A DNA stretch of 32,000 bases. It comes from Gammaproteobacteria bacterium (GTDB lineage Bacteria; Pseudomonadota; Gammaproteobacteria; JBIOEC01). Below, piece after piece: positions 15,001 to 18,000 of this stretch (positions are counted from its first letter, which is position 1; the number at the start of each line of letters is the position of its first letter). The stretch spans positions 540,001 through 572,000 of the forward strand of contig OZ257143.1 of assembly GCA_965279305.1 (NCBI GenBank). Reading direction: 5' to 3'. The position numbers are program-made.

Positions 15001-18000
15001 GCGTAAAAACAAGTGCCTTTTCTTTCTGCTTCAATAGGCTTAAATAAATCAGGATCAGAAACAGGGAAAAACAAAGTACAATCGCTGCGCTCAACAGATT
15101 CAGAAATTAACTGGCTATATGACAAAATAAAATCGCGAGAAATATTTTTTTCGCCACCCAAAAGGCCTGGAAAATTTAATAAATATCTGACAATAAAAGG
15201 AGCTTGAGCAGGATTTCCATTGATAGTTTCTGGATAAATAACAATAGGACAACACTGATTTTGAAAATCATCAGCAATAGTTTTTTCAGTTAATAGCGGC
15301 GTATACAATTCTGCTGATGTTACTTGTCCATCTTGTGGCGGATATACACATAAATAGGCACGCTCACCTTTTACGTTAAGGTAATGGCATAGCCAATGTA
15401 AAACTTTAATACCTGCCGAGGTTTTGGTATAGCTAGGAGTGAAAATATAATAAGAATTTTTCTGATGTCTTTCTATTGATTCAGGATTCATATTTTATAT
15501 TGATAGAGCTGCCTCTTTCTCACGTAAACTTTCCATCGTTTTTTGATAACGATCTTCCATCATTTTGATGCGCTCATCATCTTCATGAGCAATACTGCTA
15601 TAGTAATTCTTTTTATTTTTTAACCACAATAATTCAAATTCCATGGCTTTACAAAAAGCGATGCTTTCATTCTTTAGCGCATTAGGGCAGTCAAAAATTA
15701 CTTTTCTTGTTTCAAAGCGATCAATATGTCCTGCAGGGAAAGCAGCAAAAAATGGTAAAGAATCCATCGATACCGCACCACCGATAACAACTTGTAAACC
15801 ATTGTCTTTAGCACGCTTTGCTAGATCAACAGCCATAGTACGTATTTTTTCGCTATTCACAGCATCACGTTTAAGACCTAAAGATCCTGCCCAATCCACT
15901 CGTCCAATCACAATGCCTTTTAATGATGATATATCAGGAATTTTTAACATTTCTGAAAAATTATTATAAGCCGTTTGGGTTTCAATATTTACTAACAGCT
16001 CAACATTTTCAATAGAATCTGCATACACTTTTTTAGCAGCAGCAATAAATTTCTCTAGTGCATAAGGAGTTTCTACCATAGGTCCGATAATACGTTCGGC
16101 ACCCATATTTCTGGCATCATAAATATCTTTGATAGCTTCACATCCACCAATTTTTATATTTAAACCAAGGCCAGCTTTAGAAACCACATCTTTTAAACGC
16201 ATCGCTTCTTCAATGCGTGTGCCTTCTGCTTCAAATTCTGCTTTAACACCGCCAACACAATAATGAGTTTTCAGTTCGCTTAGTAATTTAACCATTTCTA
16301 ATTCTAAGTTATTCACTGTAATATTTCCCTTGTTTTCAAATTAATAGTAGAGCAGCTTTCAAAATATTCGGTCAATATAGAACACATGTCTGTATCAACC
16401 TCTACGGGCTCTATTTCTGAATGACCTACTTCTTTTAACAAAATCAAATTTAATTGATTTTTCATTACCTTTTTATCTTTTTTTACTTTCTCTAACAATA
16501 TATCTATATCTAATGTAAGCTGATAATTCAGGTGGAAGTGTTTTTTGATACATTGGTGTATATCCCAATAATCGGCTTCTTTTAAGTAGCCTTTCTTCCA
16601 GCTAATATAATTAACAATATCCATCCCCATTGCCACAGCTATTCCATGGGGTATGGCATAATTTGAGAGGCCTTCTAAGGCATGGCCAAACGTATGACCA
16701 TAATTTAAAATACGGCGCTGCCCCGTATCAAATTCATCTGCTTCTATATAATTTTTTTTAATCCACAAGCTGGAGTAAATGAAATCCATCACTTGAGAAG
16801 TCTTAATGCCTTCACTATCAAGTGCAGATCTAAGTTGAGAGTATGGTTTAGCCCCATCAATCAACGCTAATTTTAAAATTTCACCATAACCTGACCTGAT
16901 GGCCTCTTCTGGCAGTGTACCTAAGAAGTCCTTGCAAATCAAGACAGCCGCAGGCGCTTGAAATGCGCCGATTTGGTTCTTATATCCTTTATAATTAAGC
17001 CCATTTTTAGAACCTATACAGCTATCGCACATGCTTAATAAAGTGGTTGGCACAAATACAAAAGGAATGCCTCGGTAATAAATATGAGCAGCAAAACAGC
17101 TAATATCTTGTATAATGCCGCCGCCAATAGCGATGACTGTAGATGCTTTATTTACATGATGGGTTTGAAAAAAATCTAATACTTTTTCTGCGCCTTCAAA
17201 GGTTTTCTCCTCTTCAGTGGCATCTAAGCTAAGCATGGGGCGCTCGTGTAATGCGTGAATCAATTCAGGATATAAGCGTACAATCTCATTGTCGACCACA
17301 AAAATACTACGTGGGATAGCCAATAAAGCAGAGGATAATGCTGTTAAATCAGAGGGAAAAGATACGGTATATATTCCAGAACTACTTTTTATATCAATAT
17401 TATTCATTTAAACTTCAAAGCCCCCTATGATATAACCGCCATCAACAACAATGTCTTGTCCTGTCACAAATGTATTTTCAGGTGAAGCAAAAAAATAGAC
17501 TATATTTGCCACATCGTCCACTGAAACTAAACATCCTAAAGGAATTTTTTTTTCAAACTCTTTAATTTTTTCTGAGCTATTGTTTTTTCGTGTTAATTTA
17601 GTGTCTACAAAACCAGGAGAAATAGAGTTGACTTTAATATTCAACGGCCCAAGTTCAATCGCCAGAGTTTTTATCATTCCATTTAAGGCATGTTTAGAGC
17701 TGGCATAAGAAAACCGTGCAGGTCGTGAGATCTGACCATAAATAGACGATATGCCTAGAATATGACCGCCTTCAGCTATTTTTTTATTTTTAGTCAAAGA
17801 ATTTACTATTTGATAAAATGCAAACGCATTAATCTGATGGGTTTTTAACACATCGTTATACTGAATATTTTCTATTTTTTTAGGCTCATTAAAACCGGCG
17901 CAATGGATAAATACATTAATAGTAGATGAAATAGTTGTTAAATAACGATCAATAGATTCAGGTATAGAAAGATCACACTCTGCTCTACTTGGTGCAATCA

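Follow-up and report, generated by a model that had tools for sequence, protein, structure and literature searches.

We analysed a stretch of 32,000 nucleotides from a low-G+C gammaproteobacterium (GenBank assembly GCA_965279305.1, contig OZ257143.1, positions 540,001 to 572,000), referred to here as the window. Our subject is a tightly packed nine-gene operon on the minus strand, running from position 23994 down to 14364 with frequent overlaps between genes, in which an extra paralogue of 3-dehydroquinate synthase (DHQS, encoded by aroB) and an aldolase-like protein are the products of the seventh and eighth genes. Assignments were made by Pfam and NCBIfam scans of the proteins. The first three genes encode the glucose-1-phosphate cytidylyltransferase RfbF [256 amino acids (aa); 23224-23994; TIGR02623 469 bits, cut-off 300], the CDP-glucose 4,6-dehydratase RfbG (373 aa; 22139-23260; TIGR02622 504 bits, cut-off 278) and an RfbH/E1-like, DegT-family, pyridoxamine phosphate-dependent CDP-4-keto-6-deoxyglucose 3-dehydrase (403 aa; 20935-22146), which scores 317 bits on the RfbH model, below its cut-off of 423. 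These are followed by an extended short-chain dehydrogenase/reductase (SDR) of the Epimerase/GDP_Man_Dehyd family (362 aa; 19884-20972), which is a candidate YerF-like reductase, a YerE-like carboligase dependent on thiamine diphosphate (ThDP) with all three TPP_enzyme domains (608 aa; 18082-19908), and a classical SDR (224 aa; 17408-18082; adh_short_C2, E = 2.8e-45) whose gene abuts that of the paralogue at 17408. The TIGR04425-type DHQS paralogue (364 aa; 16313-17407) and a divergent HpcH/HpaI-fold protein (273 aa; 15495-16316) come next, and the operon ends with a 375-aa protein (14364-15491) that gives a sub-threshold match to Glycos_transf_1, a family of the GT-B glycosyltransferase fold (E = 0.004), and is a candidate transferase for a branched sugar.

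The original prediction, made from the DNA sequence, had picked out the 364-aa and 273-aa genes as an AroB-family enzyme coupled to an aldolase. Both open reading frames (ORFs) lie on the minus strand where it had placed them, the stop of the one overlaps the start of the other as GTGA (...TTACAGTGAATAAC...), and every motif that it quoted is present: GGGIIQD, RILNYGHTFGHALE and IPHGIAVAMGM in the 364-aa protein, and GPMVETP, LVNIETQ and IGRVDWAGSLGL in the 273-aa protein. In 21 homologues the N-terminus is conserved (MNxLExxM), which supports the GTG start of the 273-aa gene.

The 364-aa protein as a non-shikimate DHQS paralogue

Both DHQS domains (Pfam DHQ_synthase and DHQS_C) are matched by the 364-aa protein, with E-values of 3e-35 and 1e-32, and its top NCBIfam model is TIGR04425, at 375 bits short of the cut-off of 400. 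The family is one of hypothetical function, named by NCBIfam 'AroB-related putative sugar phosphate phospholyase (cyclizing)'. On the aroB model TIGR01357, the protein reaches 278.5 bits, under the equivalog cut-off of 305. Six relatives from other phyla behave alike: TIGR04425 is the best model for all of them (334-469 bits), with three passing its cut-off, and at 250-277 bits on TIGR01357 none reaches the aroB cut-off. The canonical aroB of the window, about 3 kb away on the plus strand (12148-13248), scores 385.6 bits on the same model and keeps the slot that had been described for it, flanked on one side by a PilM-like gene and a secretin (PilQ-like) gene and on the other by a SPOR-domain (DamX-like) gene.

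In sequence comparisons, solved DHQS structures, which have a two-domain fold, match the 364-aa protein at E ~2e-44 and 155 bits. Weaker scores were obtained with ValA, a synthase of 2-epi-5-epi-valiolone (EEVS; 108 bits), desmethyl-4-deoxygadusol synthase (DDGS; 99 bits) and the synthase of 2-deoxy-scyllo-inosose (DOIS; 88 bits). Members of the paralogue family are about 30-37% identical to canonical AroB (about 33% for the 364-aa protein and the window's own AroB), and a distance tree sets the family apart from canonical AroB, with the window protein grouped among its cassette relatives. The placement among sugar phosphate cyclases for which the original prediction had called is therefore outside canonical AroB in the tree and, by bits, nearer to DHQS than to EEVS, DDGS or DOIS.

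In order to compare individual residues, we aligned 46 members of the paralogue family with the AroB of the window and with three DHQS of solved structure. Thirteen positions (R112, D128, K134, N144, E176, K179, K217, R231, N235, H238, H242, H254 and K312/313) are invariant in the 46 family members and identical in the four canonical enzymes; they serve metal, phosphate and DAHP (the 7-phosphate of 3-deoxy-D-arabino-heptulosonate) carboxylate binding and catalysis, roles that we take from the Aspergillus nidulans numbering. Since these binding residues are invariant, the substrate of the paralogue should closely resemble DAHP. The family also has invariant residues of its own, namely Q100, C130, G175, L180 and E222, at which AroB carries G, S, A, H/Y/M and a residue that varies, respectively; this signature was defined in the present analysis and is not a curated criterion.

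The paralogue thus shares with AroB (EC 4.2.3.4) the two-domain fold, as judged by sequence, and the metal, phosphate, carboxylate and catalytic residues. Unlike AroB, it scores below the aroB cut-off, falls in a separate clade with its own signature residues, has an SDR neighbour and resides in glycan operons. EEVS, DDGS and DOIS belong to the same superfamily and are likewise paralogues recruited away from the shikimate pathway. Their substrates have no carboxylate, whereas the paralogue family retains the carboxylate-binding residues. By these sequence criteria, the 364-aa protein is not AroB but a DHQS paralogue outside the shikimate pathway, in line with the earlier suggestion of an extra AroB-family gene, and we propose that it acts as an NAD+- and metal-dependent phospholyase on a DAHP-like 3-deoxyheptulosonate 7-phosphate. 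At E <= 1e-40, a search for DHQS-like proteins gave more than 3000 clusters, some of which may be canonical AroB.

The 273-aa protein as an aldolase-like TIM barrel

The 273-aa protein barely passes the gathering score of PF03328 (HpcH_HpaI; 35.6 bits compared with 25), in a partial match that covers profile positions 74-185. With phmmer, the sole match was YfaU (E = 0.002). In the YfaU alignment the PMVET motif is matched, and E112 and D141, both invariant among homologues of the 273-aa protein, fall on the YfaU metal ligands E153 and D179. An AlphaFold model of the protein has a pLDDT of 89.3 and a pTM of 0.87, and a Foldseek comparison of this model with the PDB placed HpaI/HpcH class II aldolases at the top (E = 8.5e-8, TM ~0.55, 12-16% identity), the leading matches being HpaI, RipC, HpcH, malyl-CoA lyase and pyruvate kinase. 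The predicted structure indicates that the protein is a divergent member of the HpcH/HpaI fold, as its aldolase-like motifs had led the original prediction to expect. It shares with HpaI, HpcH and YfaU the TIM-barrel fold, the PMVE(T/S) motif and, in the alignment, the Glu and Asp metal ligands, and differs from them in an extra C-terminal helical region. We propose that it is a pyruvate aldolase making a phosphorylated 2-keto-3-deoxy acid.

The family is large (more than 7200 clusters) and unusually conserved, with 53-70% identity across phyla; members occur in Legionellales, cyanobacteria, Planctomycetota, Elusimicrobia, Bacteroidales, Rickettsiales, Actinomycetota and archaea. A plasmid search found only an unannotated RfbF-RfbG-aldolase arrangement on a Novosphingobium megaplasmid and a distant homologue (37% identity) on plasmid pILYOP01 of Ilyobacter polytropus (L082:12001-12774). 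The neighbours of the latter (aconitase, an isocitrate/isopropylmalate dehydrogenase-family protein, PrpF and a 2-hydroxyacid dehydrogenase) form a catabolic organic-acid context and not a glycan context.

The remaining enzymes of the operon

Among solved structures, 8rph (E = 5.7e-126) matches the ThDP enzyme best, followed by 5ahk (E = 3e-74), and both rank above all acetolactate synthases; the deposited names are 'thiamine pyrophosphate-binding protein' for 8rph and acetolactate synthase for 5ahk. We take these two entries to be the YerE-like structures PpYerE and JanthE, although this is an assumption. PpYerE and JanthE are the available YerE-like structures according to a review. The enzyme appears to be YerE-like, and we propose that it adds a decarboxylated keto acid to C4 of a CDP-4-keto-3,6-dideoxyhexose.

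The closest solved structure to the 403-aa dehydrase is E1 (3bcx, E = 1.6e-67), and it has, as E1 does, a His in place of the pyridoxal phosphate-binding Lys. The iron-sulfur cysteines are lacking, the [2Fe-2S] motif DCYCAPGCDNTC of E1 being replaced by SSSLFVESERIE, and Pfam and NCBIfam scans found no E3 reductase-type family among the nine operon proteins. The dehydrase may act like ColD, without an iron-sulfur partner. For the 224-aa SDR we propose the reduction of the ketone that would remain after phosphate elimination. The 375-aa protein had no match in an NCBIfam scan; its position makes it a candidate transferase for the branched sugar.

Beside the aldolase, the paralogue and a phosphatase exclude each other

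Gene neighbourhoods of the aldolase were examined in the best 80 of at least 568 genome loci, a sample that is not random. The ThDP enzyme is a near-constant neighbour, accompanying the aldolase in 69 of the 80 loci, and CDP-glucose pathway genes are present in 39. The paralogue and the 224-aa-type SDR are found as a pair in 44-48 loci, mostly adjoining the aldolase, and in dozens of loci the genes overlap in a fixed order: ThDP enzyme, aldolase, SDR and paralogue, or the variant seen in the window. This SDR accompanies the paralogue in all untruncated loci except L026. Homologues of the 375-aa protein occur in only four of the loci.

In loci without the paralogue and SDR, the gene directly after that of the aldolase very often encodes a phosphatase of the haloacid dehalogenase (HAD) superfamily. 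Two subtypes were seen, one Hydrolase_6/NagD-like (~270 aa) and the other HAD_2/Gph-like (~220 aa), and the genes often overlap with that of the aldolase (L055:10800-11591, L042:10830-11462, L066:4208-4861, L013:9488-10297 and L015:10657-11616). The 224-aa-type SDR is absent from these HAD-type loci. Where the paralogue is present (44 loci), a HAD phosphatase gene is never adjacent to the aldolase gene, is nearby in one locus and is missing from 43; where the paralogue is absent (35 loci), it is adjacent in 17, nearby in three and missing from 15, about half of which are cut by contig ends or retain the SDR. Beside the aldolase, the paralogue and the HAD phosphatase are thus mutually exclusive (Fisher's exact test, p = 5.7e-8; 79 aldolase loci), from which we argue that the aldol product carries a phosphate. 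Homologues of the 362-aa extended SDR (44-62% identity) are found in 35 of the 80 loci and in both locus types, and we regard this protein as a candidate YerF-like reductase of the C1' ketone of the branch.

In a tree of the aldolases, proteins from paralogue-type and HAD-type loci interleave, and no alignment column divides them; it therefore seems that the same enzyme serves both locus classes and that only the partner for phosphate removal is exchanged. The simplest reading is that the aldolase always yields the same phosphorylated product and that hydrolysis on the one hand, and DHQS-type elimination with ketoreduction on the other, have been repeatedly swapped. The original prediction had linked the two proteins through a phosphorylated 2-keto-3-deoxy acid of the same class as DAHP; this link gains support from the invariant DAHP-binding residues of the paralogue and from its replacement elsewhere by a HAD phosphatase.

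Three loci of uncultured Legionella (L004:1166-4570, L006:9989-12300 and L009:6973-10333) carry the aldolase gene with no gene for the ThDP enzyme, paralogue, SDR or HAD phosphatase within 10 kb. Two of these loci have, after the aldolase gene, one for an ~840-aa membrane protein with many predicted hydrophobic segments. The pathway proposed below does not account for this arrangement.

The paralogue and SDR also occur in a second cassette

A second sample, anchored on the paralogue, comprised 80 metagenome loci, in 46 of which the anchor belonged to the paralogue family and in 34 of which it was an ordinary aroB. In nearly all untruncated loci of the family, an SDR gene lies directly upstream of the paralogue gene. 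About 19 of the 46 loci have the aldolase and/or the YerE-like enzyme. At least 17 represent a second conserved cassette that lacks aldolase and ThDP enzyme and encodes a KdsB/NeuA-type cytidylyltransferase (sometimes cupin-fused), a 2-hydroxyacid dehydrogenase, a SIS-domain protein, GFO/MocA oxidoreductases and an aminotransferase. A PF04199 'cyclase' is found there as well (L085:3264-11492 and L096:2170-9687 are examples of the cassette). The constant partner of the aldolase is thus the ThDP enzyme, whereas that of the paralogue is the small SDR and not the aldolase or the ThDP enzyme.

In the tree, the second-cassette paralogues form one cluster nested within the paralogue family, and the 13 DHQS binding residues are kept in both genomic contexts. 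The occurrence of the paralogue and SDR in two contexts therefore marks them as a portable module. The cytidylyltransferase and 2-keto-acid reductase of the second cassette suggest a 2-keto sugar-acid product rather than a carbocycle; this may be a CMP-activated deoxy-ulosonic acid. Half of the second-cassette paralogues have His, rather than Lys, at window position 179.

Genomic setting of the operon

The operon has a G+C content of ~35-37%, compared with ~40-43% in its flanks, and has the appearance of an acquired island. On its two sides lie a gene for a Cons_hypoth95-family methyltransferase (24101-24661) and the SPOR-domain gene. The closest relatives of the cassette are Legionellales-like, and a near-identical locus is present in one sequencing run. 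Beyond the SPOR-domain gene, the plus strand carries, between 9777 and 13248, the PilM-like gene, an overlapping gene for the 479-aa secretin and then aroB. The usual order is pilMNOPQ-aroK-aroB; no separate pilN, pilO, pilP or aroK ORFs of at least 80 aa were found between the PilM-like, secretin and aroB genes. Further away, at 6138-7186 on the minus strand, lies an overlapping gene pair for a helix-turn-helix protein (153 aa) and a Fic-domain protein (200 aa), whose Pfam assignments come from the near-identical locus L163.

Relationship to known branched-sugar pathways

A common scheme has been described for the branched sugars erwiniose, caryophyllose and 'gastriose' (Steitz et al.; PMC9306805). 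The γ-hydroxy-2-keto acid formed by an aldolase is decarboxylated and coupled to CDP-4-keto-3,6-dideoxyglucose by a YerE-like enzyme, and a reductase then completes the branch; the ThDP step has been tested experimentally for ErwE, MMAR_2332 and MyGE (PMC9306805). The operon contains both the gene families for CDP-4-keto-3,6-dideoxyglucose and a YerE-like carboligase that adjoins the aldolase and a reductase. The pathways of yersiniose A (YerE and YerF) and erwiniose (ErwE, ErwF, ErwI and ErwJ) share with the one proposed here a YerE-type coupling to CDP-4-keto-3,6-dideoxyglucose followed by a reductase, and in erwiniose the keto acid is likewise supplied by an aldolase. They differ in that the donor for YerE is plain pyruvate, that ErwI is a BphI-type aldolase acting with an acetaldehyde dehydrogenase and is not of the HpcH fold, and that both pathways lack a DHQS paralogue and a phosphate-removal step.

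The closest parallel is the caryophyllose (lipooligosaccharide) locus of Mycobacterium marinum, MMAR_2329-2336, which is annotated with the same set of families as the operon, including an aldolase/citrate-lyase-family protein. In the RefSeq annotation (PMC12395582, supplementary table), MMAR_2329 is a '3-dehydroquinate synthase family protein', MMAR_2332 a TPP-binding protein, MMAR_2333 a glycosyltransferase, MMAR_2334 a cytidylyltransferase, MMAR_2335 RfbH and MMAR_2336 a CDP-glucose 4,6-dehydratase. Caryophyllose is lost in knock-outs of MMAR_2331, MMAR_2332 and MMAR_2333, the aldolase, ThDP enzyme and glycosyltransferase genes (PMC9306805; PMC5706390). Deletion of MMAR_2331 causes LOS-II* to accumulate. 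The sugar itself is 3,6-dideoxy-4-C-(D-altro-1,3,4,5-tetrahydroxyhexyl)-D-xylo-hexose, with an acyclic branch (PMC5706390), and an unphosphorylated C4 aldehyde ('aldehyde 28') has been proposed as the substrate of its aldolase (PMC9306805). The accessible caryophyllose literature gives no role for the DHQS-family gene and no origin for the terminal methyl group or the proposed C4 aldehyde. The M. marinum locus differs from the operon in phylum, in gene order, in having a family 2 glycosyltransferase where the operon has a weakly GT-B-like protein, and in the dehydrase, which in the window lacks the iron-sulfur cysteines. A profile built from four actinobacterial aldolases found 3047 relatives, and the 120 listed included no named Mycobacterium protein.

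A proposed pathway

From these comparisons we consider it probable that the paralogue and aldolase belong to an acyl-branched CDP-dideoxyhexose pathway. More specifically, they may form the arm that supplies the keto acid in a pathway of caryophyllose type leading to an acyl-branched 3,6-dideoxyhexose; to the full mechanism set out below we give a probability of about 0.5. The predicted product would be a cell-surface sugar, perhaps of the lipopolysaccharide or O-antigen type.

On the acceptor side, RfbF, RfbG and the E1-like dehydrase, whose families are evident and whose activities we infer, would produce CDP-4-keto-3,6-dideoxy-D-glucose. On the donor side, the aldolase would join pyruvate to a sugar-phosphate aldehyde, most likely D-erythrose 4-phosphate, giving a DAHP-like 3-deoxyheptulosonate 7-phosphate that is probably the C4 epimer of DAHP. 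The paralogue would then carry out the first steps of the DHQS reaction, that is, oxidation at C5 by NAD+ and β-elimination of the C7 phosphate, and its product would stay open-chain or in pyranose form without becoming a carbocycle. Cyclization might be escaped by enzyme-catalysed protonation of C7, for which C130 or E222 are candidate acids, or by return of the hydride to C7 instead of C5, in the manner of NDP-hexose 4,6-dehydratases; the second possibility would explain the constant presence of a separate reductase. The 224-aa SDR would reduce the remaining ketone to give 3,7-dideoxyheptulosonate. By the precedent of YerE and ErwE, the ThDP enzyme would decarboxylate this acid and attach the resulting six-carbon unit at C4 of the CDP-keto sugar, after which the 362-aa reductase would reduce C1' of the branch and the 375-aa protein would transfer the finished sugar. 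Sister clusters with a HAD phosphatase in place of the paralogue and SDR would make an ω-hydroxy instead of an ω-deoxy side chain.

The skeletons are consistent with this route: by our derivation, the 1,3,4,5-tetrahydroxyhexyl branch of caryophyllose corresponds to 3,7-dideoxyheptulosonate minus CO2, so that its donor acid would have the skeleton of DAHP after loss of the 7-phosphate, with the opposite configuration at C4. Such a configuration would explain the need for a dedicated aldolase instead of DAHP from the shikimate pathway. Two analogies may be drawn. NDP-hexose 4,6-dehydratases, with a 4-ketoreductase, generate a terminal deoxy carbon by transient oxidation with NAD+, elimination and a separate ketoreduction, and in the Kdo8P synthase and KdsC pair a 3-deoxy-ulosonate phosphate is built and then dephosphorylated by a HAD enzyme. 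These are analogies only, as the families are unrelated and the leaving group here would be phosphate and not water.

A broader possibility, which we hold more tentatively, is that TIGR04425 paralogues in general are non-cyclizing and represent a new reaction type in the superfamily, a 'DAHP-type 7-phospholyase' that forms, with its SDR, a portable module for at least two glycan routes. The redox-elimination chemistry of DHQS would here deoxygenate the terminal carbon of a 3-deoxy-2-ulosonate, the dedicated SDR completing the conversion, and the product would serve either as an acyl donor for YerE-like enzymes, as in the window, or as a CMP-activated deoxy-ulosonic acid.

Several observations weigh against the proposed pathway. 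With all DHQS catalytic residues conserved, a carbocycle would be the default outcome for the paralogue. In DHQS itself, ring opening and the aldol step are regarded as spontaneous (PMC7144000); to avoid cyclization, an extra feature is needed. Our choice of aldehyde, the stereochemistry and what becomes of the paralogue's product are matters of inference. No residue of the 273-aa protein could be aligned with the catalytic Arg of HpaI (R70), although the invariant K55 may stand in for it. Annotation and gene order are what tie the operon to the M. marinum genes, and no knock-out of MMAR_2329 or MMAR_2330 is reported in the accessible caryophyllose literature. The coupling of paralogue and aldolase on which the original prediction was built is strong and seen in many phyla but proved not to be obligatory: about 35 of the 80 aldolase loci lack the paralogue, and about 27 of the 46 paralogue loci lack the aldolase.

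Alternative explanations

The original prediction envisaged a carbocyclic end product that the SDR and ThDP enzyme would tailor and a glycosyltransferase would join to the CDP-sugar. In its present form, this alternative has the aldolase making a DAHP-like acid, the paralogue cyclizing it to a dehydroquinate-like carbocycle and the SDR reducing the ring ketone before the carbocycle enters the glycan. To our knowledge, every characterized enzyme in the superfamily of sugar phosphate cyclases is a cyclase; together with the full set of catalytic residues, the word 'cyclizing' in the name that NCBI curators gave to TIGR04425 and the apparent spontaneity of the last DHQS steps (PMC7144000), this speaks for ring formation. 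A dehydroquinate-like product has no 2-keto acid group, however, and the tightly linked YerE-like enzyme, which needs one, would lose its donor; enzymes of this type add a keto acid directly to CDP-4-keto-3,6-dideoxyglucose (PMC9306805), an order of events that departs from the tailoring originally envisaged. The exchange of the paralogue and SDR for a phosphatase, with aldolase and ThDP enzyme unchanged, can be understood only if the two routes end in similar open-chain keto acids. The sugar made by the M. marinum locus, which has the same annotated families, is acyclic in its branch, and Pfam and NCBIfam assignments reveal no activating or ligating enzyme for a carbocycle in the operon. We thus consider the carbocyclic outcome unlikely, though it is the strongest of the alternatives. 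Slightly less probable still is a reversed order, in which the paralogue and SDR would turn a sugar phosphate such as erythrose 4-phosphate into 2,3-dihydroxybutanal for the aldolase to extend with pyruvate. This would fit the unphosphorylated C4 aldehyde proposed for caryophyllose (PMC9306805) and, with no 2-keto group present, would avoid the problem of carbocyclization. The invariance of the carboxylate-binding K217 and R231 and of the residues that bind the pyranose hydroxyls would nevertheless be unexpected for a four-carbon aldehyde phosphate, and the aldolases of the two locus types, which are indistinguishable, would have to use different substrates (a deoxy and a phosphorylated aldehyde, respectively).

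The second cassette, with its KdsB/NeuA-like cytidylyltransferase and without aldolase or ThDP enzyme, raises the possibility that the paralogue and SDR are an independent module, making a separate sugar acid or modifying another intermediate, that merely shares a location with the aldolase/ThDP branch pathway. We judge this about as improbable as the reversed order: by Pfam and NCBIfam assignments the window operon has no KdsB/NeuA-type cytidylyltransferase or other activation route, the genes keep a set order, with overlaps, in dozens of loci, and the mutual exclusion with the HAD phosphatase beside the aldolase ties the paralogue and SDR to the aldolase product. A redundant AroB duplicate serving the shikimate pathway would account for the identity of the paralogue to the window's AroB and for its complete set of catalytic residues. 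We rejected this explanation, which we regard as highly improbable, on the TIGR scores of the paralogue and its six relatives, the separate clade and its invariant signature residues; moreover, the paralogue is built into a glycan operon through gene overlaps, and a bona fide aroB holds the conserved slot. Two other schemes were considered and set aside. A phosphonate pathway (phosphoenolpyruvate mutase, phosphonopyruvate decarboxylase and a reductase resembling iron-dependent alcohol dehydrogenase) does not agree with a ThDP protein that is of full-length YerE/acetolactate synthase type and a TIM barrel that matches HpcH/HpaI. The archaeal and GriI/GriH paradigm of an aldolase with a DHQS-II enzyme involves different protein families, and was rejected for the pair in the window.

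Implications

Branched sugars of the caryophyllose type are displayed on the cell surface of pathogens, M. marinum among them, and influence how host cells take these up. The published scheme covers branching by the ThDP enzyme but not the source of the deoxygenated, polyhydroxylated keto-acid donor, and the supply arm proposed here offers a testable answer; if the 7-phospholyase reading is true, it would explain where the terminal methyl in the side chain of caryophyllose comes from. Genes of the paralogue family should not be annotated as aroB. If the proposed pathway is true, two large uncharacterized families, one aldolase-like and one DHQS-like, would gain a function, the end of the side chain (deoxy or hydroxy) would be predictable from genome sequence, and a non-cyclizing reaction would join a superfamily known only for carbocycles. 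Overall, the operon would be a newly found cluster for a caryophyllose-type branched sugar, and the role of the paralogue and SDR within it would be a variation on the chemistry of the DHQS family.

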